From IMG/VR virus record IMGVR_UViG_3300034022_000096, positions 1 to 54,537 of that record: a stretch of DNA of 54,537 nucleotides; one strand, 5' to 3'. Each line of letters begins with the position of its first letter. Within the stretch, counting starts at the first letter, position 1. This DNA comes from a virus. Taxonomy: Duplodnaviria; Caudoviricetes. The notes under the pieces were generated by a model that searched no databases, was not told where the DNA came from, and saw only the letters and a program-made list of their open reading frames with translations. Below are positions 2,547 through 54,537 of the stretch, one piece after another. The translations under genes were made by a program, and so were the position numbers.

Positions 2547-2555
2547 GGAATAATC

Positions 2556-2807
2556 ATGGCAAGATTTCACACAACAGCAGAAGGCAACATTCCGTTTACC
2601 GCCGAAGAAGAAGCACACAGAGATGCGGAAGAAGCACAGGCTCAAGCAAATAAAGTTGAAAGAGCCCTTACCAAATATCAACGCGACCGAGCCGCAGAAT
2701 ACCCAGCCATTGGCGATCAACTTGATGCGTTGTTCCACGCAGGTGTGTTCCCTGCTGACATGGCTGCAACTCTTCAAGCAGTCAAAAACAAATATCCAAA
2801 GGGGTAA
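2556..2807 (+). CDS. small fibre-associated (assembly chaperone-like) protein
   Basis: TAAGGA RBS; YQRDRAAEYPAIGDQLDAL...VKNKYPK pattern typical of small genes next to fibre genes. Confidence 0.6.
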   Translation: MARFHTTAEGNIPFTAEEEAHRDAEEAQAQANKVERALTKYQRDRAAEYPAIGDQLDALFHAGVFPADMAATLQAVKNKYPKG

Positions 2808-2810
2808 CAC

Positions 2811-3344
2811 ATGGCAACAATACTTAACGCGGATAACGTAACTGGTGGTGCGGTTGTCACGGCTGATGCTTCTGGCGTATTAACGCTTCAAGGTGCGGGT
2901 AACACTGGGGTTAGTATTAGCACAGCAGGTGTGCCTACGCTTACCACACCGGTACTGGGAACTCCAACATCTGGAACGCTAAGTGCTTGTACAGTGGATG
3001 GAACTGACGCTGTTGGTTTTAGGAACATCCCACAGAACAGTAAAAGCGCAGATTACACACTGGTTCTTGCTGATTCAGGCAAACACATCTTTCACCCAGT
3101 TGGTGACAACAACGCAAGGACATTCACAATCCCTGCCAACAGTTCTGTGGCCTACCCCCTCGGTACAGCACTTACATTTATCAACATGGCCGTGGCAAAC
3201 GTCACGATTGCCATCACAACAGACACATTGGTTTTATCTTCCGCCGGTACAACAGGTTCACGAACTTTGGCGACAAACGGATCAGCAACCTGCATTAAGA
3301 TCACCTCAACATCTTGGCTTATTAGCGGGAGTGGTTTGACATGA
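2811..3344 (+). CDS. virion structural / fibre protein
   Basis: Thr-rich; YTLVLAD...FTIPANSSVAYPLGT...WLISGSGLT fibre-type domain. Confidence 0.6.
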   Translation: MATILNADNVTGGAVVTADASGVLTLQGAGNTGVSISTAGVPTLTTPVLGTPTSGTLSACTVDGTDAVGFRNIPQNSKSADYTLVLADSGKHIFHPVGDNNARTFTIPANSSVAYPLGTALTFINMAVANVTIAITTDTLVLSSAGTTGSRTLATNGSATCIKITSTSWLISGSGLT

Positions 3345-18200: not shown

Positions 18201-21200
18201 CGGACTTTAAAGAACTAGCTCGCAAAATTGTCCGTCAGATTTACACAGGCAACGAACCCAATTTGTTTGACGTTCGCGATCTAGACGAAATGGCCAGAGG
18301 CATGGAAGCCGCAGGCCAAAGTGCAACACGCCCCGGCGTTACGCCAGAAGAACTGCAACGTACCAGCGCTCAGCCACAACTTGACTTGTTCTCTGACAAA
18401 GATACGCAGACCCAGCGTGCCACACCGCGCAATTTCCAGAAGATGTTGGACTCTGGCAACGTGCAAAGGCTTCGTCAAATTATTGCGCAGCAAAACAAAG
18501 AAGCCGATAACGAAGTGTCAGCGGTGGAGGAAACTCTTACAGATGCGCAAGCCAAGCTTGCCAAAGCAGAAAAGGTTACACAGAAAGCCCTTGGTAAAGT
18601 CATAGCCCTTGAAGAAGGCGCTGATGTTGGCAGTTCGCCATTAGCAGACCAATCGTCTGAAGCGCTTGCAACCGTTAAAGTATCGGACGAAAAATTAAAA
18701 ACACGTTCTAGAGTTGCGCCAGAGTCTTCAAAGTTTGTAGCCGAGTACGGTTTGAAACCAACAAACAAAGAAGATGACCAAATTAAACTTGCGTGGGCGG
18801 AAGCAACTCGAGACGTTGTGGCCGCGGAGTCTGCGCTACAAGCGTTGCCCTTGCGGATTGCTTTCTTAACTGAGATTCGTGACAGCGTTTCCGAGTTGTC
18901 TAAAAAAGGTAAACAGGATTTAATTGCTTTAATTGACGAAGCGTTGCGTTTTGGCAGAGACCCAAGCAACCCCGCATCAATGCGCGACAGTTTAGAGCAA
19001 AAAGAGTTTGCAGAGCTTAAACAATGGTTGGATCCGGATACCGCAAACACAGAAATTAAACGTCTTAAGACTCTATACAACTTAGCCAAGAAGTCGTTAG
19101 ATCCTGCGCGTGAGCGTTTGGATGCCGCCGTTGCCAAGTACGAAGAAGGTAGCGTTGTCCGTGCAGCATTAGAACGGGAACAGAAAAAAGCACAGGACGC
19201 GTTAGACAAAGCGCAAAGAGATGAACAAGCAGCGCGCGCGGCTGTAAAGGCAGAACAAAAACAAGAGACAACTACGGAAGAAGTTGGCACACCGAACGCA
19301 GAGTACCGAGCCACCCTACAACGCGCTCGTGAAGGTCTGAATTTGCCCGGTGTTCGCAACTTGGTTGACACCACGCAAGTAAAAAAGACCATCTTCAATA
19401 TGCGTAGCGCCATGGGCTCGCTCGACGGCCAGTTAGAAAACAAAAATTTAACTGAAGAAAAGCGGGCCGAGCTTCAAGCTAAACGCGACGACGCGGAGCG
19501 AAAACTGTCAACTGTGTATGAAGACGCACCACGCATTACGTCTGAAATCAAAGAGAACGGTCAGCTTGAACTAGAACGGGCGTTTGATGATGCCCAAGTT
19601 AAAGCCTACGACAAACAGGTTGCCAAGCGCCGTAAACGGAAGGGTGAGTCTGCACCAGTGTTGCCTTCCAGCAAGACTGGCCCCGTTGCCAAAGGTGTAC
19701 GAAACCAACGCATAACGCAGTTGGGAGAAACATCAGAAACAACCGCAACAAAAGAAGCTGCCACAGCGCTTGAGACGCTTGCAGAAGAACGAGCTAAGCT
19801 GGCTGATTTGGAGCGCCGCGAGAAGTTCATGCGCGACAACGGTAAAGCTAAGTCAGGCGGGCGTTTAACACCGACGTTCAAAGCACTGCAAGCGCAGATT
19901 ACAAATCAAAAGAACGTTGTAGCAGACGCCACCGAAGAACAGGGCAAGATTGTTGCAGAAGTCCGTGAAACAAAACAAGCGCTTGGCAAGAAGAGAATTC
20001 AGAACGTTGCGTCCGAGACTGAAGTTGGGCTGAAGGGTGAAGAAGCTAAGATTCCCAAGGCGGCTAAACCGTTGTTCTCGCGTGGGCCTACAACTGACCC
20101 TAGTACGATTAACACAGTCAACACAGAACTGAAAAAATATTTCAAAGATTTATCACGTATAAAAATTTACAATTCCGTTGACGAATTAATAAAGGCTAAC
20201 CCGCAATACAAGGGGCGTATTCCAACAGACGCTAGGGGTTTTGTAGACACCGCAGGTAACAAAGCGTTTTTAATTGCCGAGAACATTGACCAAGGACAGG
20301 CACTGGGCGTATTGCTTCACGAGGTAGGGGCGCACGTAGGGCTTAAAAACATTTTGGGTGAGAGTCAATACACCGGAATGGTCAATGCAATTAAAGGTTG
20401 GGCTAAAAAGAACGACGGTTCTGTAGAGTCTGTTGTTGCCAAAGCAGCAATAGCACGGGTAGAGGCAGCAAAAACAGATGCCAAACACAGAGACGATGAA
20501 ACTCTTGCGTACGCCATTGAAGAAGCGGTCAAAGCTGGCGTTATTCCAAACCAAACTAAAGGAGTTTTAGGCACATGGTTGAGCAGGATTGCAGACGGGT
20601 TCCGTAAACTACTAACAAAATTTGGCATGGATTTGAAATCCTTTGACGCGCAAGGATTAGTTGATATTGCGTATGGGGCAGCGCAAATGGAAATGCGTGC
20701 AATGCCTGAAGGTATGAGTCGCCGTACTTTTTTACGCGGCGCGGTTTCCGCTGTTGGGCAAATGTATCTGCCCGCAGTTAACAAAGGTTTGTCCATTAAC
20801 GCTAAAGCAAAATTGTTTGATGCAACACTGGATGCCGCCGACGCATGGTATAGCACTGTAATAGGTATGGCTAAAACACCGGCGTTACGAAACATGCTAA
20901 AAGATTATTCTTTTGACATAGATAACGAGCTATTTGCTGAAGCTCTGTACAACGTAGATTCTGACGTAGAAGGCGTGGACAGTGTGTACTCAAATATATT
21001 TATGAGAAGCTATGGTAACGGCGGCGATCCAACGGAATCTGTAATAGATTTGTTAAAAAGCAAACCTGACGCGGTTGAAAAACTACAGATGGCTGTTTTA
21101 GACATGCGTTCCCAGCTTGTTGCCGCAATAGAAAAACTACCTAAAAAAGAAAATGGAGAAATTGCAGAAGATAAGTTGCCAGCAGTTGGGGACTTATTAT

Positions 21201-23863
21201 TTTCCCGCAAAGCCGCCGCTGAACCAGACAACGCGTTGATTGCGTTGTCAAGACAGATTACTGCACAGCCTAAGACGCTCAAAGAAAAGTTAAGCAACAA
21301 CCTTGCTTTGCAAGCTGAAATGCAAGCGGTGGATATGCGTGCAGGGTTGCGCGACACCCTTAAGTTTGGTGACGACAGTCTGTTTACCCAAGCCATGTAT
21401 CACGTACGCAAGGCTGAACAGAAGATGGCGCAGATGTTTACCGTCATGAACAGCGGCCCGTTGGTTGCGTACAAAGACTCCAAAGGTTTTGTGGGTTATC
21501 GCAGTTCCAATGAGAACAGTGCTCGTGATGTGTTTGACGCAATTGCTGACGTTCCCGTAGCCGATCCGCAGTTAAAAACCAACATTACGCAGGCGTACAT
21601 GGTTGCTCAGCGCACCGCCAACAAAGGGTTACCAAAGCTAGACCTTGGCGCGTTAGGCATCACGGAAGAACAACTGACTGCTGCTCTGGCTGCGGCGGAT
21701 GCCGACCCTGCTTTAAAGCGGGCACTAGAGAATGTACGTACCAAGTACAACGCGTACAACAGAGGCATGATTGAGTTCCTTGCTAGCACCGGACGTATCA
21801 CCAAAAAGGTGGCGGCGGACTTGCTTAAAGAAGGCGACTACGTGCCTTTCTATCGTGTGGACAAGAACGGCAACGCTAGTTTGGTATTCAACAACAATGT
21901 TACGTTTAACGTGGGCGACATCCGCCGTCAGCCATACCTTGCAGAACTCAAGGGCGGCGACACAAAGTTACTGCCACTGAACGAAGCTCTTCAGCGCAAC
22001 ACGTTGTTGCTGACAGACATGGCGCTGACCAACAATGCCGCCAAGAGTGTGGCTTATGGCTTGCAAGCACTGGGCAAAGGCAAAGGCCCTGTTAATCCCA
22101 AGACAGGCAAACCTACGGACTTGATGGCCATCAAAATAGGTCTTGGCGATGCCAATGCTAAGGTCATTCGGTTCTACCAAGAACCTGACCCAAACAAACC
22201 CGACGATAAAGGCGAGCGCCACATTGAGGTGGATACTAGAGGCACTGCCGCTGAAGGCATTCCTGCCGAGCTAGTGGTGCAGAGTTTAGAAGGCGCAAGT
22301 CTTGCGCTTCCCGGGTTCTTTAAACTGGGTGGTGCTGCCGCCGATTTGCTACGCGCCGGTGTGACCCGTACGCCTTTGTATATTGCTCGTAAATTACTGC
22401 GCGAACCTATGGCTGCAGCCTTTACTGGTGGCTTAGACAGCAACGTGTTCTCCTCTGTCTTCAAGGCAGGCGCTGAGTTCGTACGTATGAGCACTGGCAA
22501 CAGTGCCATGCAAGCTAAGTTAATTGAGAAAGGGCTGATCCAGTCTAATATCTTTGCAGGCGACATGTCTGACATGAAGAAGATGGCGCTTCAGCTTGCC
22601 AGTGGTAAAGACCAAGGCGCTCTTGACAAAGTGCTGGCCGCCGCCGACCGGTACGCAATGCGTGCTGACGCCGCCACACTAGCGTTGGTGCTTAAAAACG
22701 CTGAAGCTAACGGGTTGTCAGAGGTCGAGGCTGACATGGCCACGATGGAGTCAATGAACTTCTACAAGCGCGGGTTGTCTCCCACGTTGCAGTACGCTAG
22801 CCGTTTGATCCCGTTCTTCAACGCCCAGATTCAGGGTTTGAATGTTCTGGTTAAAGCCGCACGAGGCAACATGCCTTTTGAAGAACAACAGCAAATTAAA
22901 CGCAAGTTCTTTAACAACGCCATGTTGCTGATGGGCACCGGTATTGTGTACGCCATGGCCATGGATGACGACGAGACTTTCCGTAACGCTCGCCCACGGG
23001 ACAAGTATGCCAACTTTTTCTTGCCTATTCCGGGCGTGGATGAGCCGCTCAAACTACCTATTCCGTTTGAGGCCGGTTACTTCTTCTCTCTAGCTGTGGC
23101 CGCAGTCGACGGCATGCGTGCTGAGACTGACGGTAAGGCGCAGTTCCAAGCTCTTAAAGACTTGTTCTTAGGCTCTATTCCCGGCTACTCGTCCATGGGA
23201 GTGCCTGCACTTGTCAAGCCTGCGTTTGAGGTATGGAGTGATAAGAACTTCTTGACTGGAGGCCCGATCGAGCCACGCCGCATGCAAGGGTACGACACTG
23301 AAGAGCGCTACCTTGCGACCACCACAGAGTTGGCCAAGCAGATGAGTAAGCTGTTGCCGATCCTATCCCCAATCCAGATCGAGCACCTTGTGCGCGGGTA
23401 TCTGGGCGTACTACCTCTAGTAGCGGCGGCGGGGGCCAACGGTTTGTTTGAACGCGAAGGCAAGGGGGAAAAGCCCGCAGGTCGTGCATCTGACTTGCCT
23501 TTGATTGGCACAGCGTTTCAAAAGAAATACGGCGGCGGCGATGCCGACGTGGTGTACCGCGAAGCACAAGAAGCTGTTAACGCTAATGCCACATTTAAGA
23601 AAATGCTTAGCGAAGGTCGTCGCGAGGAGGCCGTGACCTACCGTGACAAAAACAAAGTGGAGATGGCCATGGCTCCTGCCGCCGGGCAGTATCGCCAAAT
23701 TATTGGACGCATCAACACCGACATCCGCCGCGTGCAAGAGCGTGACGACTTGACGGCAGAAGAAAAAAGATTACGCCTTGATGCGCTAGAAAAAGCCAAG
23801 CAAGATCGGGCTGACGCTTTTATCAGGCAGACGCGTGCTGTGGAAGAGCGGCTAGGGGGCTAA
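15296..23863 (+). CDS. giant polyvalent virion protein (metallopeptidase-like motif, C-terminal LPD38-like domain)
   Basis: 2855 aa; HEVGAH motif; C-terminal IPFFNAQIQG...LPIPFEAG...SPIQIEHLVRGYLG resembles LPD38; last gene of the virion operon. Confidence 0.75.
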   Translation: MAQSVQLPDGSWFPLKEGEDPREAMAVASKLYPEAFGRKKGEDKPKEDTKGFKAAAAAGFERLKGETALTAAKLGLKDIGEAEAYQKEKQASAARRFTPTEDSFIESPLQNVKELLGGSVPYMLAPAAAGLAALAAPVSAPVAAGLGLLGAGAVSTGQFTGSNLARQMDTGKSLEEASLGKAVAAAVPQALIDTAAMALLPGVGKLFGSVGSKLTTEQAKAIASQTLTRTIADYTAKTGVAMSREGVTEATQQLLERLQAGLEITNPEARKEYIDSFIGGAVLAGTLAPAGRALERGGAKRQATAADRAEALQLSSEQLQQQKAQEEAAAQALETERQSPEYAIKLGAEYEAILKDFQTKQKVLKDPGKNATPEEKAVYAERKAEVSGLNKQLEELTPEYRRTKPIREQEAEKQRVAGISPEDYMLEQMGQPDQGIQASGRKTNKGQLFPSEALAPAPVDTTLQDYATEQLTAAQNVGALTTKDRLDYLMQNPEMARQLLANRTPLPGVSAQEQKLIYSALVGQLKAFDKQKTTQEKLQAEQAERVRGQMAGTTPGADIMGAATQMPAVQTAEQKRAEDEARLRVVTPEVEGIQKLGQTPEYSPAQALRQSYDTRKASEKQDEDLVNGLIDTLPKGGMVTPGQVFQGLGGGTSRERSDLLTQLAVARESSGKSKQGGVKDNDISRGIIEKLRALKQTETTGTGTETAPMQTILAGISVPEARAKEAAANKFADQQNQQLLAFTRMLGKVNRGTLVLPDTFKQRSDAAKQAYLQLHLDEINARRDAFGLPPMADWERGEARARVMEALNELGDRWGSAANAGPAGQRQFGSQIQAVAALQEQMRSNIQKTVAGAAQRANLNATNEVAEKTTAPTGAGPRIAAPAELTLRGEARTEPSTEDMIEALLSQTETRERAVPTAAVKPTKKVTDLGDIKQLLEKERSGGKLEPMGAGSVQLLKQLQDMLPQTTDADFKELARKIVRQIYTGNEPNLFDVRDLDEMARGMEAAGQSATRPGVTPEELQRTSAQPQLDLFSDKDTQTQRATPRNFQKMLDSGNVQRLRQIIAQQNKEADNEVSAVEETLTDAQAKLAKAEKVTQKALGKVIALEEGADVGSSPLADQSSEALATVKVSDEKLKTRSRVAPESSKFVAEYGLKPTNKEDDQIKLAWAEATRDVVAAESALQALPLRIAFLTEIRDSVSELSKKGKQDLIALIDEALRFGRDPSNPASMRDSLEQKEFAELKQWLDPDTANTEIKRLKTLYNLAKKSLDPARERLDAAVAKYEEGSVVRAALEREQKKAQDALDKAQRDEQAARAAVKAEQKQETTTEEVGTPNAEYRATLQRAREGLNLPGVRNLVDTTQVKKTIFNMRSAMGSLDGQLENKNLTEEKRAELQAKRDDAERKLSTVYEDAPRITSEIKENGQLELERAFDDAQVKAYDKQVAKRRKRKGESAPVLPSSKTGPVAKGVRNQRITQLGETSETTATKEAATALETLAEERAKLADLERREKFMRDNGKAKSGGRLTPTFKALQAQITNQKNVVADATEEQGKIVAEVRETKQALGKKRIQNVASETEVGLKGEEAKIPKAAKPLFSRGPTTDPSTINTVNTELKKYFKDLSRIKIYNSVDELIKANPQYKGRIPTDARGFVDTAGNKAFLIAENIDQGQALGVLLHEVGAHVGLKNILGESQYTGMVNAIKGWAKKNDGSVESVVAKAAIARVEAAKTDAKHRDDETLAYAIEEAVKAGVIPNQTKGVLGTWLSRIADGFRKLLTKFGMDLKSFDAQGLVDIAYGAAQMEMRAMPEGMSRRTFLRGAVSAVGQMYLPAVNKGLSINAKAKLFDATLDAADAWYSTVIGMAKTPALRNMLKDYSFDIDNELFAEALYNVDSDVEGVDSVYSNIFMRSYGNGGDPTESVIDLLKSKPDAVEKLQMAVLDMRSQLVAAIEKLPKKENGEIAEDKLPAVGDLLFSRKAAAEPDNALIALSRQITAQPKTLKEKLSNNLALQAEMQAVDMRAGLRDTLKFGDDSLFTQAMYHVRKAEQKMAQMFTVMNSGPLVAYKDSKGFVGYRSSNENSARDVFDAIADVPVADPQLKTNITQAYMVAQRTANKGLPKLDLGALGITEEQLTAALAAADADPALKRALENVRTKYNAYNRGMIEFLASTGRITKKVAADLLKEGDYVPFYRVDKNGNASLVFNNNVTFNVGDIRRQPYLAELKGGDTKLLPLNEALQRNTLLLTDMALTNNAAKSVAYGLQALGKGKGPVNPKTGKPTDLMAIKIGLGDANAKVIRFYQEPDPNKPDDKGERHIEVDTRGTAAEGIPAELVVQSLEGASLALPGFFKLGGAAADLLRAGVTRTPLYIARKLLREPMAAAFTGGLDSNVFSSVFKAGAEFVRMSTGNSAMQAKLIEKGLIQSNIFAGDMSDMKKMALQLASGKDQGALDKVLAAADRYAMRADAATLALVLKNAEANGLSEVEADMATMESMNFYKRGLSPTLQYASRLIPFFNAQIQGLNVLVKAARGNMPFEEQQQIKRKFFNNAMLLMGTGIVYAMAMDDDETFRNARPRDKYANFFLPIPGVDEPLKLPIPFEAGYFFSLAVAAVDGMRAETDGKAQFQALKDLFLGSIPGYSSMGVPALVKPAFEVWSDKNFLTGGPIEPRRMQGYDTEERYLATTTELAKQMSKLLPILSPIQIEHLVRGYLGVLPLVAAAGANGLFEREGKGEKPAGRASDLPLIGTAFQKKYGGGDADVVYREAQEAVNANATFKKMLSEGRREEAVTYRDKNKVEMAMAPAAGQYRQIIGRINTDIRRVQERDDLTAEEKRLRLDALEKAKQDRADAFIRQTRAVEERLGG

Positions 23864-28759: not shown

Positions 28760-29206
28760 TTACTTAGTTGGTTTACGAACTGAAATGGCGTACTCTGTCA
28801 TAGAGTTAAGCCCTGCGGGAACTAGACTGGGATTCTCAGACAAGAACGTAGCCATGTTGGTCTGCGCAATACGCTTCTCCAACAAGTCCAACGCATCGTG
28901 TTCCTTGATGAACTCTTTAAAGGAGTCCCAGTCTTGTGTGTTGTAGCGTGTCTTGGTAGACAGCACTACGGTGCCTTGGTCTGTGCGTACACTTGATACG
29001 CCAAGCTTGAGCATCTGGTCTTTGAGCGCGATCTTCACAACGTCTTGCTGACGCTTGATGTCCTCGATCTCAGACTCGTACTGAGCGGTTAACTCTTGTA
29101 CGCGTGACTGCATCCTGCGGTACACCTTCGCCAACTTGTCCATGGGGACAGTGACGTCTGTCGGTGCTTCCTGAGGAGCAGGTTCCTCATCATCTATGTT
29201 TAACAT
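28760..29206 (-). CDS. conserved phage coiled-coil protein
   Basis: Strong RBS; coiled coil followed by SVRT..GT and DW..F..FI.EH..DLLEKRI.Q motifs. Confidence 0.7.
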   Translation of the reverse strand: MLNIDDEEPAPQEAPTDVTVPMDKLAKVYRRMQSRVQELTAQYESEIEDIKRQQDVVKIALKDQMLKLGVSSVRTDQGTVVLSTKTRYNTQDWDSFKEFIKEHDALDLLEKRIAQTNMATFLSENPSLVPAGLNSMTEYAISVRKPTK

Positions 29207-29230
29207 CTACTTCTCCTTGAATTATTTTAT

Positions 29231-30844: not shown

Positions 30845-31076
30845 CTTCTTCCAGTACGTAATGGAACTCTCTAATTTTTTTAGTTGTAGCAACGTTTACA
30901 GACCTCGCCTGCTGTCTGCGGCACACCTCTAAGCCAATCATGCCTAGTTCAGTTTTTTGTCTTATTAAAGACTCAAGCTCGTTGCACAAAACTTTATTGT
31001 CATTAAATCCTACTTGCCACAAGTCGCGCAGTGTCTGCGTGTCCACATTTTCAAACCCTGTTGTTTCCGTTACCAT
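30831..31076 (-). CDS. hypothetical protein (distant paralogue of the two neighbours)
   Basis: GGAGG RBS; TLRDLW motif. Confidence 0.6.
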   Translation of the reverse strand: MVTETTGFENVDTQTLRDLWQVGFNDNKVLCNELESLIRQKTELGMIGLEVCRRQQARSVNVATTKKIREFHYVLEEDADR

Positions 31077-31414
31077 TACGCATCCTCCTTCAGCCTAGCC
31101 CAAGGCGAGTTGTCTGAGTGATGGTTTAGTTCTTCCATCTTTTTATTTTTATGCAGTCGCGCTGAAGCATCAGACCAAAAGTCGTCGTCTAACTCTGATA
31201 CATCTATCCACGTATCTCCATACTTTGCACGCCATAAGTTGACAAGTTGCGATAGTGGTATCGAATACACAGGGTCATTGTTAGGATTGAACGTAGTCAT
31301 AGTGACGGGCTGTTGCTTTCTAGCCTGTGCGTACACTTGGGCGCTTATTCCTAGTTTTCTAGCAAGCGCGGCCTCAGTTGCGGTAAGCGTTACCGTATTC
31401 TTTACTTTTCCCAT
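31076..31414 (-). CDS. hypothetical protein with scaffold-like N-terminal motif
   Basis: AAGGAG RBS; LTATEAALARKLGISAQVYA followed by IPLSQLVNLW..KYG..W.D. Confidence 0.7.
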   Translation of the reverse strand: MGKVKNTVTLTATEAALARKLGISAQVYAQARKQQPVTMTTFNPNNDPVYSIPLSQLVNLWRAKYGDTWIDVSELDDDFWSDASARLHKNKKMEELNHHSDNSPWARLKEDA

Positions 31415-31429
31415 TTTCTTCTCCTTGAT

Positions 31430-31890: not shown

Positions 31891-32556
31891 TCAGTGTTTC
31901 TTGTTGAACTCGCAAGTCTTTACTGGGCACCAACCGCACAGTGGCGTTTGATTTGGGTTCCACACGTCGTTGGCAAAGCTTGCTTCAAGCCGCGCTGTAC
32001 GCTCACGATAGTCCCACCAGTGTTTATCGGCGTCATCTCGTGCCATCGACATCTTGACCATATCATTTTTCACAATGAACAGCAATGCTGAGTTGACCTT
32101 GCGTATGTGTGGGAAGTGGGCAAACACCATGAGCGACATGAGAACTAACTGATCTCTATCGGGATACTTGTTGTTGCCAGTCTTCCAGTCACCCACCCAT
32201 GCCGTGAGGTTGTCGTCATCAACGACTAGGATGTCAGCAATGCCGCGCACCCACACGTCTTTGTCTTTCCAACCAGTAGGCTTGAGGTCGACAGTCAGCG
32301 CCATCTCATACTCAGCGAGCTTGCGCCCATTCTTCTTCAGCATGGCGTCCACCACAGGTTGAAACTGTGAGTACTCAGCGGGTATTGGTTTGCCCTCTGC
32401 GATGTAGTCCTCAATAGCTTTGTGTACCTGATTGCCGTAACGTGTTGCCTCAGTCTCAGTGAACGGGTAGTTCTTCAAGACCTTGACCTCTTGGTAGCGG
32501 CGTTGGCATCCCTCAAAATCTTTGAGGGCTGAGTGTGACCATGCGGGTTGTTTCAT
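31891..32556 (-). CDS. PD-(D/E)XK exonuclease (RecB/Cas4-like)
   Basis: WSHS.L..F..C, G..VH, RGIAD, DWKTG, QL and C-terminal LCGWCP...C motifs. Confidence 0.88.
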   Translation of the reverse strand: MKQPAWSHSALKDFEGCQRRYQEVKVLKNYPFTETEATRYGNQVHKAIEDYIAEGKPIPAEYSQFQPVVDAMLKKNGRKLAEYEMALTVDLKPTGWKDKDVWVRGIADILVVDDDNLTAWVGDWKTGNNKYPDRDQLVLMSLMVFAHFPHIRKVNSALLFIVKNDMVKMSMARDDADKHWWDYRERTARLEASFANDVWNPNQTPLCGWCPVKTCEFNKKH

Positions 32557-32849
32557 AGTTGGGCTGAGTTGATTGCGCTTGATAAGCGGTTGGCAAAAGC
32601 ACTGACAAACTTCTCGTCACTACATAGCTCGTGCTTCATGTCGTGTAGTACAGCGTGAGTCATCTCATGCCAGAACGAGTCGGCCAGTTCTGCTTTGTCT
32701 AACTTGTTGCCGTAAGCATCTTTCTTGGCAAGCCAGATGATGCCGTGTGTGTAGTCGATTGTGCCTAGCGTGTGTTGTCGCTTGGCTTTGTCAACCATGA
32801 TTGTGGCGTATTCAACGTTGCCCACTCTGATGCGTTTTGGTATCTTCAT
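32553..32849 (-). CDS. small zincin-like (HExxH) protein
   Basis: FWHEMTHAVL plus a downstream E (DEKFV). Confidence 0.65.
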   Translation of the reverse strand: MKIPKRIRVGNVEYATIMVDKAKRQHTLGTIDYTHGIIWLAKKDAYGNKLDKAELADSFWHEMTHAVLHDMKHELCSDEKFVSAFANRLSSAINSAQL

Positions 32850-32857
32850 TACTTCTC

Positions 32858-34825
32858 CTAGCTTTTTGCTAACCCATATCTCCGGTGAGCGCCACCGTCA
32901 GCGGACAATGGTATGCCTTGCATATAGCTTGGCTCCATAGTCATTTGCGCCAAGACCCAAGTCTTAGCGTCAACTACTTCATCGTCAGGTACAACAGCAA
33001 TCAGTTCGTCATGCACTGTGCCTGCGATCGGGTATTTCTTTGCTACCCTCAACATACCATCCGTCATAACAATACGTGCTAATGCCTGCGTAATGTTGTT
33101 CGTTATCTTTCCTGCATACAACTTGGTAGCGTGTGGCCCGTAGACTGCTTGGCTCCTACCTTTGTCGTCCTTCACATAGCGAAGATCAGGGTACAACAAC
33201 TTCATTCCGTTTGGTAATTCTATCTCACCTTTGCGGAACGTAATACATTTATACACCAGTTCTTCACCCTTTACAAGCGCCCTGTGTAAAGCTGTTTCAC
33301 AGAGACTCCAGAACGCTACAACAGGGTACGCAGTGCTCCTATACGTGTCTATGATAGCTTTGGCCGCAAGTACGTGGTTTAAAAGATCTTCAGTTGAGCA
33401 GGTGTGCGGTATCTCCAACAGCTTGGTATCGATGTCAGTCAACTTCACAAAAGCTTGCGCATACTCCGAGCCAACACCTAACTGCTTTGCGAAGTCTCGC
33501 GAATACCTGACTGGCGGTGCACCGAGGAATCCGACAAGTAGTTGCGAAGCAAAGGACGCCCAACCAAGGCCATAGCCGCACCCGAGTAGCGCTGATTTAG
33601 CAGATTGGCGAAGGTCTGGATGCGAGTCTTTGGTAAGCCCATGTATGTTGAACATCTGAGCCCCGAACGCGGCATAAGGGTCACCCCCTGCGCGGAAGAT
33701 GTCAAGCATATCTTCGTAATCCGAAAGCCACGCGAGGACTCGCGGCTCAATCTGCGAGAGATCACCGACGACGAGTTGATACCCCTCTGGAGCCATAATT
33801 GCTTTACGTAGGAACGAACCTCGCTTGAGGTTTTGCATGTTGATGGCCGAGCCTTTGGCCGCTGTCCACCTACCCGTCTGCGCCCCGTAGTACGAGAGCG
33901 GAACTGGGAGCGTGCCGCGTTTGCCGATGTCAAGGAATCTTTGGGCACGGGTTCGCTCAGTGGTTGATTTAACCTTAAGACGCGCTTGACAAAGTAGGGC
34001 AACGTCTTCACGTTCACTGTTGAGTAGCGTTTGAAAAAGGGCGTCGTTCTTTGCAAGCGCGAGGGTCGTCTTGCCTGTGGTTTTACTCGTCTTGGTAGGC
34101 GGAACAACTCCGAGTTTCGTAAGTAGTTCAGCAAACTTTGGGTTCGATGCCAACTCAGCATCCTCCACGCCGAGCCTCTGTAATAGTTGTTCACGAGCAG
34201 TTCCTTCCTCGGCTAGTGCCTTGATTAACATTTGTTGGTCTAATTGCAACAGCGGACGCGTGTACATCTTGAGCGTCATGTCGATGAGCCGTAGCTCTTT
34301 CGCAGGGTAGCCTTTAACAAGTCGTTTGAATATCTCCTCGCACAGAAATACATCATGGGCGCAGTAGTCGGCAAGCTCTTTTTCAATTTCCGGCGTGAGT
34401 ACTGATAGTCCGTTAGTGGAGTAAACAGCATTGCCTTTTGGGGGGAGGGAATAATCGGAGGCCAATTTTGCAAGGGAGTTGCCGACTTCAACTCCTCGAA
34501 GCGCTCGTCCCATTGATAACGTATCAAAGATGAAACATGGTCGGGCGTTATATCTCCACTCCATAATTGATACATCGAACTGTGCGTTGTGGGCAAGCAC
34601 TGCGGTTCGTCCCCAATCAACCCCATCAAGGTACGCACGTAACTCTGTATCTCCAAACCATCTAATTGGTTCATCGCTTCCGTATACATGGACGCAAGCT
34701 CCGAACGCTCTGAATTTATCATGGCGTATGTACTCCTCTGTTGTCATCTTACTGAGCGTGTACTCTTTGCTATCCCAGTACGTCTCAAAGTCGATGGTTA
34801 TTATTTTGTCGTATGGTTTGGTCAT
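32858..34825 (-). CDS. polA: DNA polymerase, family A (3'-5' exonuclease plus polymerase)
   Basis: DFET, HNAQFD and YCAHD exonuclease motifs; TGRW, DLSQIEPR (motif A), RQSAKSALLGCGYG (motif B), VHDE (motif C). Confidence 0.95.
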   Translation of the reverse strand: MTKPYDKIITIDFETYWDSKEYTLSKMTTEEYIRHDKFRAFGACVHVYGSDEPIRWFGDTELRAYLDGVDWGRTAVLAHNAQFDVSIMEWRYNARPCFIFDTLSMGRALRGVEVGNSLAKLASDYSLPPKGNAVYSTNGLSVLTPEIEKELADYCAHDVFLCEEIFKRLVKGYPAKELRLIDMTLKMYTRPLLQLDQQMLIKALAEEGTAREQLLQRLGVEDAELASNPKFAELLTKLGVVPPTKTSKTTGKTTLALAKNDALFQTLLNSEREDVALLCQARLKVKSTTERTRAQRFLDIGKRGTLPVPLSYYGAQTGRWTAAKGSAINMQNLKRGSFLRKAIMAPEGYQLVVGDLSQIEPRVLAWLSDYEDMLDIFRAGGDPYAAFGAQMFNIHGLTKDSHPDLRQSAKSALLGCGYGLGWASFASQLLVGFLGAPPVRYSRDFAKQLGVGSEYAQAFVKLTDIDTKLLEIPHTCSTEDLLNHVLAAKAIIDTYRSTAYPVVAFWSLCETALHRALVKGEELVYKCITFRKGEIELPNGMKLLYPDLRYVKDDKGRSQAVYGPHATKLYAGKITNNITQALARIVMTDGMLRVAKKYPIAGTVHDELIAVVPDDEVVDAKTWVLAQMTMEPSYMQGIPLSADGGAHRRYGLAKS

Positions 34826-39533: not shown

Positions 39534-40736
39534 TTAAACAGAAATGTGCAAGACTTTGCCATAGGTAGGAACGAATGACTCGTTCTCTACCACACCCCAC
39601 AGAGATGGCATTGGGGTATTCGGGGTATCGCAACCAAGGTAACCATCTGTCAACCAGACGATTGCCCGAGCGTCGATCTTGTGTTCCTTGATGTAGTCGA
39701 CAACAACATCAGGAGTAGTACCGCCACCGCCCTTGGGGTTCATGAGCGAAGCGATCTGTTCATAGTCAGCAGGCTTGAAGGCTTGGTCACCACATACAGT
39801 AGTGTCCCACCACAACACACGCACACCCGCAGGCTTGGTGATGTTGCAGATGCGAGCGATCTCACCGAACAGCAGACGATAGTAAGGATACATAGAGCCC
39901 GATGTGTCGACAGCAAGTATCAACTCACCGACTGACTCTGTGAAGTGCGATGGCATAACGAAGCCCGAAGCGAGCAAGCGTTTGTTGGGAGGACAGAAGC
40001 GTGAGTTGTCATCACCCGCAGAGATAGAACTAATCCATTCCTGCAATGCCTGCTTCCAGTCAGTCATGCGTTCCTTGGCAGTGCCTAAGATGTCACGACC
40101 ACCGCCCTCTTTACCCGCAAGCTTACGTGCAAGTATCTCGCCTTGACGATTGGCATCGTCGATCTGCTTGCCAAGCTTGTCTTGCTCGACTGGGTTGTCA
40201 TCGAACTCACCATCCTCATGTGCATCGAGGGGCTCATCGAAGTCACCACCGCCCTCGTTGTCACCCTTACCACCCGAGGGTTCCTTACGCCCACTCTTGA
40301 TGAGATCGTTGAGCACCTGCGGGAATGACCAACCGAAGTACTTGCGATCAATGCACAACGACTCAGTAGGACGCTCGACAAACTTGAAGTCAGGGTCGAG
40401 TTCCTCGATGAGTGCATTGACCACATAGTCGTGTGCTATGTTGGTAAGCTTGGGCATCTTGCGTGTGTACTCTTTGAACAAGATGCAGTGCTTGAGTGCA
40501 ACGTGAAAGTTCTCGTGCAGTACAAGGTAGCGCATCTGCTTGCGGTTGAGTGGCGTAATGAAGTCAGCGCCATACTTCTTGTCACGACCATTGGTAGCGG
40601 CAGTACGTACCTTGGTAGACACCTCGCTCTTACCTAGCATGATGACGCCTGACAGCAAGGCGAACTTAGGGTGACGCATACAGTCAATGTTTGCGGCTTG
40701 GACTCTCTGATTGAGAGTCATCTTCTCATAGCTCAT
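39534..40736 (-). CDS. metallopeptidase-VWA protein (DUF2201-like)
   Basis: TAATNG, LHENFH (HExxH), DTSGS MIDAS, GGGGT and LTDG motifs. Confidence 0.85.
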   Translation of the reverse strand: MSYEKMTLNQRVQAANIDCMRHPKFALLSGVIMLGKSEVSTKVRTAATNGRDKKYGADFITPLNRKQMRYLVLHENFHVALKHCILFKEYTRKMPKLTNIAHDYVVNALIEELDPDFKFVERPTESLCIDRKYFGWSFPQVLNDLIKSGRKEPSGGKGDNEGGGDFDEPLDAHEDGEFDDNPVEQDKLGKQIDDANRQGEILARKLAGKEGGGRDILGTAKERMTDWKQALQEWISSISAGDDNSRFCPPNKRLLASGFVMPSHFTESVGELILAVDTSGSMYPYYRLLFGEIARICNITKPAGVRVLWWDTTVCGDQAFKPADYEQIASLMNPKGGGGTTPDVVVDYIKEHKIDARAIVWLTDGYLGCDTPNTPMPSLWGVVENESFVPTYGKVLHISV

Positions 40737-40763
40737 AGTGCTTCTCCTGTTTTGTTTAAAGAA

Positions 40764-45961: not shown

Positions 45962-46136
45962 CGAGGGGTTGCCAAATACCCTTGACATCGTATTCCATGT
46001 GGGCTGAACCCCACCCTACCCCCACCAAGCCATATAGAGGGCGGCCATGGCGACTTCGTGTAAACACTGTTTCGTAACCACGATTCAATTTTTAAAAAAT
46101 CCGAAGTACCCCCACTGTACAAAAACACAGTACCCC

Positions 46137-46169
46137 TAAAAAATTTTATAAAAAATTTTATAAAAAATT
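46137..46169. repeat. 12-bp A-tract tandem repeat
   Basis: (TAAAAAATTTTA) x 2.75. Confidence 0.8.
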
Positions 46170-46185
46170 GGAAAAACCTCGTGGC

Positions 46186-46218
46186 AAAAAAAAAGCCCCG
46201 GGTGTTTAGTCCGGGGCT
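46186..46218 (-). terminator. strong intrinsic terminator
   Basis: AGCCCCGG-N9-CCGGGGC followed by T9 on the minus strand. Confidence 0.8.
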
Positions 46219-46271
46219 AAAGATGGCAACTGGAAACCATCAAGGAGAAGCAAATGCTTGCACACTTGCCG
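46186..46271 (-). ncRNA. predicted ~85-nt small RNA with anti-RBS seed
   Basis: Bounded by a TTGCTT-N17-TACACT promoter and a strong terminator; contains CAUUUGCUUCUCCUUGAU. Confidence 0.55.
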
Positions 46272-46306
46272 AAAAGGAGTGTACACTCTCGCCAACGAGG
46301 AAGCAA
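46258..46306. promoter_or_regulatory. bidirectional promoter pair sharing the AGTGTACACT palindrome
   Basis: (+) TTGCAC(46258)-N18-TACACT(46282) towards terS; (-) TTGCTT(46306-46301)-N17-TACACT(46283-46278). Confidence 0.55.
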
Positions 46307-46325
46307 CTGAAAAGGATTCCTACGC

Positions 46326-46928
46326 ATGTTAGATCACTTGGTGCATTTTGAACCTGAGGTCACCACTCGGGGAAGCTTTGAAAAACTGGACGACGCGACG
46401 CCCAGTGATGTTCTGTCGGCGCAAGTTGCTACAGAGCAATGGTTAGCAGAGATGGGCGTGGATGACGACGAAGTGGTTGCTAACCAACAACAGACACAGG
46501 CTGCGCGAAAAGCGTTTAATGCCGTGACCACCGACGCCACCACCACGGAACAAAAAGCTAACCTCGCAGAACTTAAATCCCCAGCGGCAGTAAGACATCT
46601 AACAGGTATGTTGGCTGCGTACGACTGGCAGTTTATAGACATGGCGCAGGAAATCAGGGGCTACACGGTAGCTAAACTGGTTGAAGAGACGAAGTCCCCC
46701 AACGCCAACATCCGCTTGAAAGCTTTGATTGCGCTAGGCAAGGTCACGGAAGTCGGGCTCTTTACTGAGCAGATTGAGGTCAAGAAGATTGAGATGTCGG
46801 ATGCTGAAGTTGAGCAGCGCATCAAAGATAAGTTGGCCAAGTTCATGGGAGTGATAGACGTGGTGGACGTTTCCGAGCGCCCAGACGATAGTCCACAAGA
46901 GAAGAATGATGGGCCAGATGGACTTTGA
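46326..46928 (+). CDS. terminase small subunit (putative)
   Basis: Directly upstream of and overlapping terL; RLKAL..LGK..EVGLFTE motif. Confidence 0.7.
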   Translation: MLDHLVHFEPEVTTRGSFEKLDDATPSDVLSAQVATEQWLAEMGVDDDEVVANQQQTQAARKAFNAVTTDATTTEQKANLAELKSPAAVRHLTGMLAAYDWQFIDMAQEIRGYTVAKLVEETKSPNANIRLKALIALGKVTEVGLFTEQIEVKKIEMSDAEVEQRIKDKLAKFMGVIDVVDVSERPDDSPQEKNDGPDGL

Positions 46929-48726: not shown

Positions 48727-51222
48727 ATGGCTACCAATATCGACAAAGCGCTGTACCAACAACCAATGGGCATTGACGCGCTGGGCGAGCAGGAATCCCC
48801 ACTTGAGATTGAGATTGTTGATCCCGAAGAAGTCACTATTGGCATGGACGGCATCGAGATCACGCTTACGCCCGGAGAAGATGACGGCGAAGAAGGCTTT
48901 GACGACAACTTGGCCGAGTATATAAAAAGTGGTGCCTTGCAGTCGCTGGCTGGGGACTTGGTGTCTGACATTGATAACGATAAGAATGGCCGCAAGGATT
49001 GGGAGAAGACGTACGTTGATGGTCTGAAGCTCTTGGGCTTGCAGATCGAAGAACGCACAGAACCATGGAACGGCGCGTGTGGTGTGTTCCACCCCATGAT
49101 TACAGAAGCAGTTGTGCGCTTCCAAGCTGAGACAATCACTGAGACGTTCCCAGCCCAAGGGCCTGTGCGCAGCAAACTCATCGGCAAAGAAACGCCAGAG
49201 ATGAAAGAAGTTGCGTCTAACGTTGAAGATGACATGAACTACGAGTTGACGGAGGTCATGACAGAGTACCGCGCTGAACACGAGCGCATGCTTTGGTCAC
49301 TGCCAGCCACAGGCTCAGCGTTTAAGAAGGTGTACTACGATCCCAATTTGGGACGTCAAGTATCTATGTTTATTCCTGCGGAAGATATGTATCTGCCATA
49401 CGGTACAACGGACTTGGATACTTGTTACCGCATCACGCACGTCATGCGCAAGACCAAGAATGAGATTATCAAGCTTCAGCAAGTTGGCTTCTACCTTGAC
49501 ATTGACTTGGCTGACGCCCCCAAAGAGTTAACCGACATTCAGAAAGCCAAAGATAAAGAGACTGGCTTTAGTGACTTAAACGACGACCGCTACACGCTGT
49601 ATGAGTGCCACGTTGATTTAAACCTTGAAGGTTACGAAGATAAAGACGACGCGGGTGACGAGACCGGCATCATGTTGCCGTACGTTGTCACGTTGATTAA
49701 AGGCTCTAACGACATCCTGTCAATCCGCCGCAACTGGAAGGAAGAAGATGACCTCAGACTCAAGCGCCAGCACTTCGTTCACTACCAATATATTCCGGGT
49801 TTTGGAGCTTACGGCTTCGGGCTTTTCCACCTTATCGGAGGCTTTGCTAAATCCGCTACATCCCTCATGCGCCAGCTTGTCGATGCAGGAACTCTTGCCA
49901 ACTTACCCGGCGGACTCAAGACACGCGGATTGCGAATCAAAGGCGACGACACACCAATCGCACCCGGAGAGTTCCGTGACGTAGACGTTGGCTCGGGTAC
50001 GATCCGTGACAACATCTTGCCGCTTCCGTACAAGGAGCCAAGCGCTACGCTGTTTAACTTGATGCAGACCATCGTTGATGAAGGTCGCCGTTTTGCCGCG
50101 ACTGCTGACATGAAGGTGTCGGATATGTCTGCGCAGGCTCCCGTTGGCACAACGCTGGCGCTACTAGAGCGCCAGTTAAAGGTAATGACTGCGGTGCAGG
50201 CTCGTGTGCACTTTGCCCTGAAGCAAGAGTTCAAACTCTTGAAGAACATCATCCGCGACTACACCGACGCTGATTACACATACACACCTGAGTACGGCAC
50301 TCGCAAAGCTAAGAAAGCCGACTATGACTTGGTGGATGTTATCCCCGTGTCAGACCCCAACGCTGCGACCATGTCTCAGCGCGTTATCCAGTATCAAGCC
50401 GTTATTCAAATGGCGCAGATGGCTCCGGACATCTACAACTTGCCCGAACTTCACCGCGGTATGTTGAACGTTTTAGGTATCAAGAACGCAGAGAAGCTTG
50501 TGCCAATTGAGGACGATCAGAAGCCAATTGACCCAGTGCAAGAGAACCAGAATGCGCTTAAGGGTAAGCCACTTAAAGCGTTCTTACACCAAGATCATGC
50601 CTCGCATATCCAAGTGCACATGATGTTGCTCCAAGACCCGATGATGCAGCAGTTCATTGGTCAGAACCCACAGGCCCCCAAGATCATGGGTGCAATCACT
50701 GCGCACATTGCAGAGCACGTTGGTTACCAGATGCGCCAGCAGATCGAGCAGCAGTTGGGTATGCCCCTGCCTCCCGAAGACGAGAAGTTGCCACCACAGG
50801 TGGAGATCGCGTTGTCCGGCATGATGGCTCAAGCCGCGCAACAGGTGTTGATGCAGAACCAAGCCAAGGCTGCACAGATGCAGGCACAGCAACAGATGCA
50901 AGACCCAGTCATGCAGTTGCAGATGCAGGAACTCCAACTCAAAGGCCAAGAGCTCGAGTTGAAGAAACAAAAGATCATGATGGACGCTGCTGCCAAGGCC
51001 GACGCACAGGCTCTGAAAGAGCAAGAAGTCAGCGGCAAACTGGAGTTGGAAGCTCTTCGCACAGGTGCGCAAATCAAAGAAAGCGAATTCAAGCAGCAGT
51101 TTGAACAAGAACGTGCCGGTATCCAGATGGGTTCCGACATCGCAAAGAGTAAAGCCCAGATGGAGTTACAAGCGCGTACTGCTGCGCTCTCAAATAGCAA
51201 ACAACGTGAGCCCAAATCATGA
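48727..51222 (+). CDS. portal protein (P22-like, long Gln-rich C-terminal barrel)
   Basis: Follows terL; GSAFKKVY, FYG/AYGFGL and VGTTLALLE motifs; Q/M-rich coiled-coil tail. Confidence 0.88.
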   Translation: MATNIDKALYQQPMGIDALGEQESPLEIEIVDPEEVTIGMDGIEITLTPGEDDGEEGFDDNLAEYIKSGALQSLAGDLVSDIDNDKNGRKDWEKTYVDGLKLLGLQIEERTEPWNGACGVFHPMITEAVVRFQAETITETFPAQGPVRSKLIGKETPEMKEVASNVEDDMNYELTEVMTEYRAEHERMLWSLPATGSAFKKVYYDPNLGRQVSMFIPAEDMYLPYGTTDLDTCYRITHVMRKTKNEIIKLQQVGFYLDIDLADAPKELTDIQKAKDKETGFSDLNDDRYTLYECHVDLNLEGYEDKDDAGDETGIMLPYVVTLIKGSNDILSIRRNWKEEDDLRLKRQHFVHYQYIPGFGAYGFGLFHLIGGFAKSATSLMRQLVDAGTLANLPGGLKTRGLRIKGDDTPIAPGEFRDVDVGSGTIRDNILPLPYKEPSATLFNLMQTIVDEGRRFAATADMKVSDMSAQAPVGTTLALLERQLKVMTAVQARVHFALKQEFKLLKNIIRDYTDADYTYTPEYGTRKAKKADYDLVDVIPVSDPNAATMSQRVIQYQAVIQMAQMAPDIYNLPELHRGMLNVLGIKNAEKLVPIEDDQKPIDPVQENQNALKGKPLKAFLHQDHASHIQVHMMLLQDPMMQQFIGQNPQAPKIMGAITAHIAEHVGYQMRQQIEQQLGMPLPPEDEKLPPQVEIALSGMMAQAAQQVLMQNQAKAAQMQAQQQMQDPVMQLQMQELQLKGQELELKKQKIMMDAAAKADAQALKEQEVSGKLELEALRTGAQIKESEFKQQFEQERAGIQMGSDIAKSKAQMELQARTAALSNSKQREPKS

Positions 51223-53897: not shown

Positions 53898-54537
53898 ATG
53901 GCTATTTCACGCGCACAACTACTTAAAGAACTGCTCCCCGGCCTGAACGCTTTGTTCGGCTTGCAGTACGCTACTTACGGCGAAGAGCACAAAGAAATCT
54001 ACGAAACAGAGAAATCTGAGCGTAGCTTTGAAGAAGAGACAAAACTGTCTGGCTTCTCTGCGGCTCCTGTCAAGAACGAGGGTTCAGCCATTGCTTATGA
54101 CAATGCGCAAGAAGCGTTCACGGCTCGCTACAACCACGAAACCATCGCCTTGGGTTTCTCAATCACTGAAGAAGCGGTTGAAGATAACTTGTACGACAGC
54201 TTGTCTGCTCGCTACACCAAGGGTCTGGCTCGTGCTATGGCTTACACCAAGCAGGTTAAAGCTGCATCCGTCTTAAACAACGGCTTCACAGGTGGTGTTT
54301 ATGCTGGTGGTGATGGTGTTGCTCTGTTCTCTACAGCGCACCCATTAGTCTCTGGTGGTACCAACAGTAACCGTCCTTCAACCAACTCTGACTTGAATGA
54401 AACATCGTTGGAAAACGCTGTGATTCAGATCGCTGCTTGGACTGATGAGCGTGGTCTGTTGATCGCTGCTAAACCTAGAAAACTCGTTGTGCCTCCAGCA
54501 CTTCAGTTCGTTGCTACTCGTTTGCTCGAAACCAACC
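53898..54537 (+). CDS. major capsid protein, 3'-truncated (not in ORF track)
   Basis: AAGGAG RBS; MAISRAQLLKELLPGLNALFG...ETIALGFSITEEAVEDNLY...LFSTAHPL; open to the window end. Confidence 0.88.
   Translation, partial: MAISRAQLLKELLPGLNALFGLQYATYGEEHKEIYETEKSERSFEEETKLSGFSAAPVKNEGSAIAYDNAQEAFTARYNHETIALGFSITEEAVEDNLYDSLSARYTKGLARAMAYTKQVKAASVLNNGFTGGVYAGGDGVALFSTAHPLVSGGTNSNRPSTNSDLNETSLENAVIQIAAWTDERGLLIAAKPRKLVVPPALQFVATRLLETN

Follow-up and report, generated by a model that had tools for sequence, protein, structure and literature searches.

The virus record IMGVR_UViG_3300034022_000096 (Caudoviricetes), a single stretch of 54.5 kb from an uncultured water phage that we refer to as the window, very likely carries a conserved, so far undescribed phage small-RNA (sRNA) gene on its minus strand at 46186-46271. 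With less confidence, we propose that this RNA probably blocks the ribosome sites of a motif-marked set of the phage's own leftward genes and so represses them, as its complementarity to the starts of these genes suggests. The conservation, structure, strand and complementarity of the locus were computed in the window and in relatives. An initial annotation of the DNA had placed promoter hexamers, a terminator, an 18-nt segment and pairings of this segment with gene starts here, and each of them is found where it was placed. Its proposal of a trans-acting sRNA that silences early and replication genes stands with respect to the minus-strand gene and its complementary seed; the part that had late transcription switch the RNA on is not supported.

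The genes of the window form two divergent blocks, one rightward and one leftward. The rightward block begins at 46326 and continues at 1-23863, with a small-terminase (terS) candidate, TerL, portal, virion proteins and a 2855-aa protein. The leftward block extends from about 45988 down to 24015 and contains a helicase, a DNA polymerase, a primase/helicase and many unknowns. The sRNA locus lies within the sole divergent intergenic region, 45988-46326.

Structure and conservation of the small-RNA locus

Two sets of variants were compared. For the first, we used the best 80 of 154 viral-contig stretches that match the small-terminase candidate (98-59% identity); 73 of these loci had enough upstream sequence and gave 52 distinct versions, or 53 with the window included. 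The second set comprises 63 new distinct versions from a locus-pattern scan of viral contigs, which located at least 120 stretches, 80 of which were examined; its search pattern already required the motif described below. The RNA family known in viral contigs thereby amounts to at least 116 distinct variants. Five related genomes (G001-G005) were set beside the window (G000). The features of the locus in the window are:

46301-46306, minus strand: -35-like hexamer TTGCTT of the sRNA promoter; 52/53 versions have TTGnnn at a spacing of exactly 17 nt to the -10
46278-46283, minus strand: TACACT, a -10-like hexamer that makes up the left half of AGTGTACACT, a palindrome; TACACT in 42/53 versions, TATACT in 11/53
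46186-46271, minus strand: predicted sRNA of ~85-87 nt; 5' end inferred from the -10, 3' end set at the end of the U-run
46249-46270, minus strand: 5' hairpin of 9 pairs, including 3 G-U, with a GCAA loop; from the predicted fold, with compensatory changes in helices 1-2
46243-46253, minus strand: invariant seed UUGCUUCUCCU, the complement of AGGAGAAGCAA; exact 11-mer in 49/53 versions
46222-46241, minus strand: hairpin 2, GAUGGU / GCCAUC; all 6 pairs changed on both sides in the second set
46186-46218, minus strand: intrinsic terminator, AGCCCCGG / CCGGGGCT, with an 8-bp G+C stem and a 9-nt loop (hairpin 46218-46194) and nine U up to 46186

The initial annotation had suggested looking for the promoter, seed and terminator upstream of terS in relatives, and all three are kept there: the promoter spacing and the seed in the numbers of versions listed above, the terminator in every version. 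The last three bases of the -35 hexamer vary freely among the 53 versions (CTT, CAA, CAT, AAA, AAC, CAG, TGT). The palindrome AGTGTACACT spans 10 bp, 46278-46287, and the 5' hairpin starts 1-2 bases past the inferred RNA start in nearly every version. As claimed in the initial annotation, the minus strand of 46186-46271 does not fully contain any open reading frame (ORF) of 20 aa or more; two ORFs are listed for this strand of the locus, and both begin upstream of the inferred RNA start.

The 87-nt RNA has a minimum free energy of -34.7 kcal/mol (z = -4.4), and its predicted fold leaves the stretch UCUCCUU (46248-46242) unpaired between the 5' hairpin and hairpin 2. Judged by eye, all but three of the 53 versions share the layout of 5' hairpin, unpaired UCUCCU, hairpin 2 and terminator, the exceptions being three G004-type versions without a clear hairpin 2. 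In the second set the three hairpins folded in 63/63 versions, with the CUCC core unpaired in 61/63. The terminator consists of 8-11 G+C-rich pairs and 7-9 U in all versions. Its stem sequences differ among relatives yet stay complementary, and an A-run on the plus-strand 5' side, present in every relative printed, gives the U-tail of the minus-strand RNA.

Because loop lengths differ between versions, a raw MAFFT alignment analysed with RNAalifold recovered 10 pairs only, and per-sequence folds together with a covariance model, R1, built from 23 versions were used instead. In the first alignment 87.1% of cells are paired, compared to 78.4% in shuffles (0/500 reaching the observed value) and 34-56% with slid partners; in the second alignment the figures are 90.1%, 75.5% (0/500) and 39-53%. 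Cells changed on both sides number 86 and 192, against 32 and 62.8 in shuffles (0/500 reach them), a compensatory change is present in 11/22 pairs of the first alignment and 15/22 of the second, and the covariation score was reached by 0/500 shuffles in both sets, all figures that have to be read with model-fitted alignments favouring structure and relatedness inflating the shuffle tests. The slid-partner controls and the strand asymmetry are free of these weaknesses. Of the two strands, the minus strand gives the more stable RNA in 51/53 versions (by a mean of -9.0 kcal/mol) and in 63/63 of the second set, an advantage that is expected if the numerous G-U pairs matter.

R1 matches 46187-46271 at 87.4 bits and nothing else in the window. 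It finds one match in 76/81 sources, the remaining five being cut off upstream, and one strong match in each of five whole relatives, which identifies the gene as single-copy. The model accepts 77/80 pattern-located stretches in viral contigs, and 1/80 in cellular genome contigs (at least 120 stretches, from unrelated taxa). The sole cellular-contig acceptance (L257, 2287-2373, 51.3 bits) lies on a 4.9-kb contig binned with a lake metagenome-assembled genome labelled Phycisphaerales. This is probably a phage contig caught by binning and therefore gives no clue to the host. A megablast search of the locus against named phages gave no match. In line with what is generally expected of trans-encoded sRNAs, the locus has its own promoter and terminator, conserved among relatives as judged from consensus and conservation, and a structure backed by compensatory changes on the transcribed strand. 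Four versions (L008, L014, L025 and L039) have an insertion of ~30 nt with its own GGCC...GGCC stem inside the 5' hairpin, the rest of the fold being intact.

Complementarity to the starts of leftward genes

We infer from these features that an RNA is produced and that it acts by pairing. According to this model, a trans-acting RNA of ~85 nt would be read from the minus strand from its own sigma-70-type promoter and would end at the intrinsic terminator, just upstream of the leftward (replication-side) operon. It is predicted to fold into a 5' hairpin, an unpaired UCUCCU(U) linker, a second hairpin and a terminator hairpin that ends in a U-tail. Together, the linker and the adjoining UUGCU, which belongs to the weak base of the 5' hairpin, would constitute the 11-nt seed UUGCUUCUCCU. 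Pairing of the seed with AGGAGAAGCAA ahead of the start codons of a subset of leftward genes would cover the ribosome site, and often the AUG, and translation of the gene set would be repressed.

The target motif AGGAGAAGCAA is composed of the Shine-Dalgarno core and a six-base extension, AAGCAA, on its 3' side, and it is located 1-4 nt before the start codons of a leftward gene subset. The canonical 16S tail offers no bases 5' of CCUCC that are able to pair with AAGCAA, and the extension is therefore not explained by ribosome binding. On the side of the RNA, the 5' five bases of the seed stay fixed while their partner varies between GGCAA, GGUGA and AGUGA via G-U pairs, which points to a second constraint on those seed bases.

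The 9-mer GGAGAAGCA, which occurs once at the RNA locus, is present on the leftward strand in 4 copies in G001, 6 in G002, 4 in G004 and 7 in G005, nearly all immediately before start codons; ~0.5 copies per genome are expected from size. With up to one mismatch, the 11-mer is found at 21/262 called leftward starts versus 0/247 rightward starts (Fisher 7e-7, a value that overstates independence because the genomes are related and the counts non-independent). In 80 further loci we found 25 motif copies on the sRNA strand, all on the leftward side and 21 with a start codon within 6 nt, and 2 copies on the other strand. Three TerL relatives without an R1 match hold 0, 0 and 1 copies of the 9-mer. 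Motif and RNA are thus present together in six genomes and absent together in three.

Judged from these sequences, the target motif is clearer in the relatives than in the window, where the sites are more degenerate: only 40739-40748 keeps GGAGAAGCA, and other target sites read GGAGAAGTAG, GGAGAAGAAA and GGAGAAGTAA. The predicted target starts in the window are:

29204-29220, minus strand: start of gene 28760-29206 (148 aa, DUF7307-like below cut-off), predicted to pair with CAUUUGCUUCUCCUUGAU
31412-31429, minus strand: start of gene 31076-31414 (112 aa, no family), predicted to pair with CAUUUGCUUCUCCUUGAU
32849-32859, minus strand: start of gene 32553-32849 (98 aa), AGGAGAAGUAA, 11 pairs, one of them G-U
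40739-40748, minus strand: start of gene 39534-40736 (400 aa, DUF2201 metallopeptidase/VWA-like by Pfam), AGGAGAAGCA, 10 pairs

The 18-nt segment CAUUUGCUUCUCCUUGAU corresponds to 46256-46239 on the minus strand. Its pairings with the first two genes had been described in the initial annotation and were reproduced: with UCAAGGAGAAGUAGAUG of gene 28760-29206 it forms 17 contiguous pairs, two of them G-U, and with AUCAAGGAGAAGAAAAUG of gene 31076-31414 17/18 positions pair. The duplex with the former start is the best in the window (-27.6 kcal/mol, net cofold gain -15.5), and that with the latter reaches -23.5 kcal/mol (net gain -9.5). Pairings over 9-11 nt with the starts at 40736, 32849, 35025 and 37216 were also recovered. 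The lengths of 17-18 nt hold as complementarity and not as availability: only UCUCCUU is unpaired in the predicted fold, and the full pairings therefore need the 5' hairpin to open.

In G001, G002 and G005, the orthologues of the four target genes have AGGAGAAGCAA(A)ATG, or a sequence close to it, at their starts; in G003 and G004 this is partly so. Specifically, AGGAGAAGCAA is present in orthologues of gene 28760-29206 in four relatives, AGGAGAAGCAAATG in those of gene 31076-31414 and GGAGAAGCAA in those of gene 32553-32849, both in G001, G002 and G005, and the site at 40739-40748 is kept in G001, G002, G003 and G005.

To separate the seed from its Shine-Dalgarno complement, CUCC was held fixed while the flanks were shuffled, and the five best duplex energies with all called starts were summed. 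Out of 200 shuffles, the observed energy was reached by 1 in the window, 0 in G001, 0 in G002, 5 in G005 and 7 in G003. We also calculated the net cofold gain, which allows for the unfolding cost of both RNAs, with a threshold of -8 kcal/mol or better. Leftward starts pass in 8/40 cases in the window and in 12/42, 18/57 and 12/38 in three other genomes, compared to 2/33, 1/32, 1/55 and 3/44 for rightward starts; one of the two rightward passes in the window is a spurious ORF over the sRNA gene itself. The initial annotation had cautioned that part of each match is simply the Shine-Dalgarno core, and flank shuffles, motif placement and net cofold gain agree that seed-start complementarity exceeds that core. 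The seed is accordingly conserved, partly unpaired and complementary to target starts beyond chance, G004 being not significant.

A distinction drawn earlier between the ribosome sites of early and late genes holds as a tendency and not as a rule, with GGAGAA at 7 early-side and 2 late-side starts and TAAGGAA at some early genes. At 32847-32861 (minus strand), the DNA polymerase gene (32858-34825) ends in a TAG that falls inside the motif of the next gene, CTAGGAGAAG, so that the RNA, if it pairs there, would mask the end of the polymerase frame as well. Pairing of the seed with the terS leader, GAGGAAGCAA, was considered and rejected: it amounts to 8 pairs in the window, and distant relatives do not retain it.

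Alternative explanations and related systems

A number of observations weigh against repression of a motif-marked gene set by this RNA. The sRNA promoter of the window has 7/12 matches to TTGACA/TATAAT, the Escherichia coli consensus; a consensus scan (cut-off 9/12, loop limit 8) listed neither this promoter nor the terminator with its 9-nt loop. Five of the 11 seed bases are paired in the predicted fold, and the Shine-Dalgarno core makes up part of each match. The window holds 4 copies of AGGAGAAGCAA with up to one mismatch, versus a shuffle mean of 1.0 and a maximum of 3, which is weak, the strong evidence being that from the relatives, and only 2/40 called leftward starts carry the 11-mer within one mismatch; gene calls in the window and relatives are crude, from an ad hoc script. 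The second variant set is uninformative on motif conservation, because its search pattern demanded the motif. Covariation of seed and targets gave no clean case: in G004 the seed is changed to UUUUCUCCGAGG, yet the genes of G004 keep GGAGAAGCAA, and the duplex statistic of this genome is not significant (39/200 shuffles). One G004 gene start (49849-50079) matches the lineage-specific seed flank over 11 nt, a single case. The bases upstream of AGGAG were also compared with the 3' flank of the seed; they vary, with no clear match. A switch of late transcription that makes the sRNA, as initially proposed, found no support, nor did the timing that it implies. Finally, 22 public RNA runs share small parts of the window, as contigs only. 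The contigs of the four runs compared leave 46215-46256 uncovered and are uninformative on the RNA, its strand and its ends. A 239-nt contig from a freshwater RNA library runs from 46257 to 46495 and crosses the divergent promoters, a 78-nt contig begins at 46307 behind adapter letters, and a 34-nt piece with 4 mismatches falls on the terminator.

The RNA may be real and have another job, such as acting on host mRNAs via a generic CU-rich anti-Shine-Dalgarno stretch, titrating a host factor (Hfq, for example) or, through its promoter and terminator alone, shielding the strong leftward promoter against divergent transcription. We regard this as unlikely, while giving it some weight: the Rfam model RF02278 can be aligned in its full length to the 3' two-thirds of the RNA, members of this family, in the text available of PMC5688073, act on cellular ribosome sites and slow growth, and the terminator abuts the promoter-like sequence TTGCCA-N19-TATAAA. 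However, the invariant part exceeds the Shine-Dalgarno complement by six bases and the same extension recurs at phage gene starts, the motif and the RNA occur or are missing together (6 genomes versus 3), and a mere insulator needs no invariant unpaired seed. Action of the minus-strand RNA in cis appears less probable still. It could serve as antisense or by interference on the terS promoter, or be a terminated leader with read-through into the leftward operon, much as PR' and 6S RNA are arranged in lambda. The -10 hexamers have 2 bp in common and each -35 lies within the transcribed side of the other, and the RNA is co-directional with the leftward operon, ending 60-200 nt before its first ORFs. 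Such action would leave unexplained why the seed matches a motif at starts 5-17 kb away; the terminator is strong in all versions, and a separate, better promoter lies past it.

Two further explanations dispense with a minus-strand RNA. In one, which we consider very improbable, the plus-strand sequence AAGGAGAAGCAAATG is the ordinary ribosome site of a leader peptide upstream of terS, and the minus-strand complementarity is a by-product. The sequence has the same form as real phage start regions, and in 49/83 distinct versions an ATG follows GGAG after 3-10 nt. Against this, 25/83 versions have no start codon and 9 only GTG or TTG, and the ORFs are 5-49 aa long (3 more run past the segment read) and use the same DNA in three frames, so that no conserved plus-strand peptide emerges. 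The 18-aa ORF at 46254-46310, which the initial annotation had named as a possible owner of the site, is likewise unconserved. Furthermore, the candidate plus-strand promoter lies downstream of the motif, the G-U pairs of the stems are A-C mismatches in a plus-strand RNA, and the terminator is functional for the minus strand only. In versions that do have an ATG, the RNA is complementary to target genes as far as their AUG. There is even less to be said for an element that acts purely as DNA next to terS, for instance in packaging, as an origin or in binding a protein. The position immediately before the small terminase gene and beside A/T-rich repeats at 46080-46180, and the 10-bp palindrome, would suit such an element, but the strand asymmetry in folding energy (51/53, 63/63) and the pairing-preserving changes, including G-U, are properties of RNA and not of duplex DNA, and the hairpin and U-run have the geometry of an intrinsic terminator.

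Among known RNAs, no Rfam family matches at gathering scores over the whole window. The best sub-threshold match is RF02278, the betaproteobacterial toxic or double-hairpin sRNA, with 27.6 bits versus a gathering score of 50 and E = 9.4e-4 in a 301-nt search; in the loci of 14 relatives (59,144 bases) RF02278 gave no match at E <=0.05. The window RNA aligns over model positions 1-64, with UCUCCU on UCUCCU, and both RNAs consist of an unpaired CU-rich stretch directed against ribosome sites, a hairpin and a terminator hairpin with a U-tail. According to the parts of PMC5688073 at hand, the Burkholderia double-hairpin sRNAs ncS03, ncS05, ncS27 and ncS62 have 55-80% of their predicted interactions on start regions, and the RF02278 sRNAs are encoded on the chromosome, where a betaproteobacterial genome has three to five dispersed copies; overexpression of ncS27 slows growth (PMC5688073; PMC4603805, both in part). 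In contrast, the window RNA scores below membership, has an extra 5' hairpin and is phage-borne and single-copy, with all matches of relatives in virus records. Its seed is six bases longer than the Shine-Dalgarno complement and directed at the phage's own genes.

The c4 antisense RNA of P1/P7 has a structure that presents complementary bases and blocks a ribosome site (PMC12197685, in the portion seen). The window RNA is likewise phage-encoded and predicted to pair around the ribosome site. However, c4 acts on one downstream message (ant/icd) in its own operon in temperate phages, whereas the window RNA has its own promoter and terminator and several dispersed predicted targets 5-17 kb away behind that terminator. 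The c4 family, RF01695, was absent both at gathering scores and among the 21 sub-threshold rows.

The motif is reminiscent of the start-associated sequence (SAS) of cluster K mycobacteriophages, an asymmetric motif with AGGAG that extends past the 16S pairing a few bases before starts and that, in the sections consulted of PMC3203893, is found only at non-structural genes and in one orientation, bar a single reverse copy. In 2011 the partner of this motif was described as "either RNA or protein" (PMC3203893), and excerpts of two later papers still leave the matter open in 2024-2025 (PMC11373665; PMC12699233). We found no paper linking SAS to an RNA in the literature searched. The motif described here is also an extended one, found at non-structural starts in one orientation in the data from relatives, and its single reverse copy is the sRNA locus. 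The two systems differ in motif (GGGATAGGAGCCC in cluster K, AGGAGAAGCAA here), in host phylum and phage type, and in copies per genome (11-19 in cluster K, 2-8 here), and no extended inverted repeats were noticed here.

With up to 2 mismatches, the SAS consensus has 16 copies on the gene strand of mycobacteriophage Anaya and one reversed. The latter is found within the 385 nt that separate gp96 from gp97 (L231 39683-40067; record ~59682-60066) and reads GCGCGG-CCTCCTATCC-CCGCGC on the gene-sense strand, with a 6-bp G+C stem that presents CCUCCUAUCC in the loop. An invariant TAGACT occurs ~95 nt upstream of this anti-SAS stem, and the intergenic region is conserved in 182 cluster K records. 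Of eight aligned phages, four retain the anti-SAS hairpin, two have variants of it, one differs and one lacks it. When six phages were folded to a consensus, the stem came to lie at the tip of a longer hairpin that these six keep, with changes. The arrangement mirrors that of the window.

We tentatively speculate that some phages mark non-structural genes with an extended Shine-Dalgarno motif that is run by one sRNA made from a reverse copy, and that the same applies to the cluster K SAS, a reading that we consider rather doubtful as a whole. If it is true, the window RNA is the first candidate trans-factor for a start-associated motif. Phage regulatory RNAs have so far come mostly from temperate coliphages and prophages. 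The T4 endoribonuclease RegB and the repressor RegA are proteins that act at the Shine-Dalgarno or start regions of early messages. The proposed RNA resembles them in that a set of early messages would be shut down, and differs in that RNA-RNA pairing would give the specificity. If confirmed, it would be an RNA-based counterpart of the protein devices that shut off early translation, a simple model of gene-set addressing via an extension of the Shine-Dalgarno sequence, and a pointer to the unknown partner of the mycobacteriophage SAS described in 2011 (PMC3203893).

Neighbouring promoters, leader and the phage record

One further candidate promoter faces the terS gene within the locus:

46258-46287, plus strand: candidate rightward (terS) promoter TTGCAC-N18-TACACT, based on the consensus match only

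TTGCnn at a spacing of N18 is found in 46/53 versions. The candidate -35 falls on the loop of the 5' hairpin; L071 and L074 have lost this -35 and keep a GAAA loop. As the initial annotation had noted, the -10 hexamers of the sRNA and terS promoters overlap in AGTGTACACT, and the shared part is 2 bp. Because of this overlap, it seems more likely that the two promoters compete than that they fire together.

Directly past the U-run of the sRNA lies the promoter-like sequence TTGCCA-N19-TATAAA (46157-46187, minus strand). At this site TTGACA-N18-TATAAA is found in 10/48 distinct versions and TTGnnn at 18-19 nt in 33/48, and the block TTTTTATAAAATTT is nearly universal in relatives. From these sequences, the site is probably the main promoter of the leftward operon; its conservation indicates that sigma-70-type signals are conserved in this phage group. 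Between it and the first leftward ORFs lies a leader (45990-46150) that is strongly conserved, has no obvious ORF and contains the blocks GAAACAGTGTTCAC, a G-rich GGTGGGGGTAGGGTGGGG and repeats of GGGGTACT. This leader may act as another non-coding element or as a region to which a protein binds.

The record is classed as linear and ~84% complete. Both of its ends are cut inside genes, with ORFs running off at 1-470 and 53898-54537. TerL is 45-54% identical to those of phage 023Pt_psg01, pelagiphages HTVC023P and HTVC027P, phage DSL-LC04 and Synechococcus phage MinM2, and no lysogeny genes were noticed among the window genes searched. The sole Pfam match of the 2855-aa protein (15296-23863, plus strand) is LPD38, a domain of large polyvalent proteins, near the C-terminus. 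In one relative (L136), an array of five tRNA genes with a sub-threshold tRNA-Sec-like match (2431-3039) adjoins the sRNA locus at 2351-2426.

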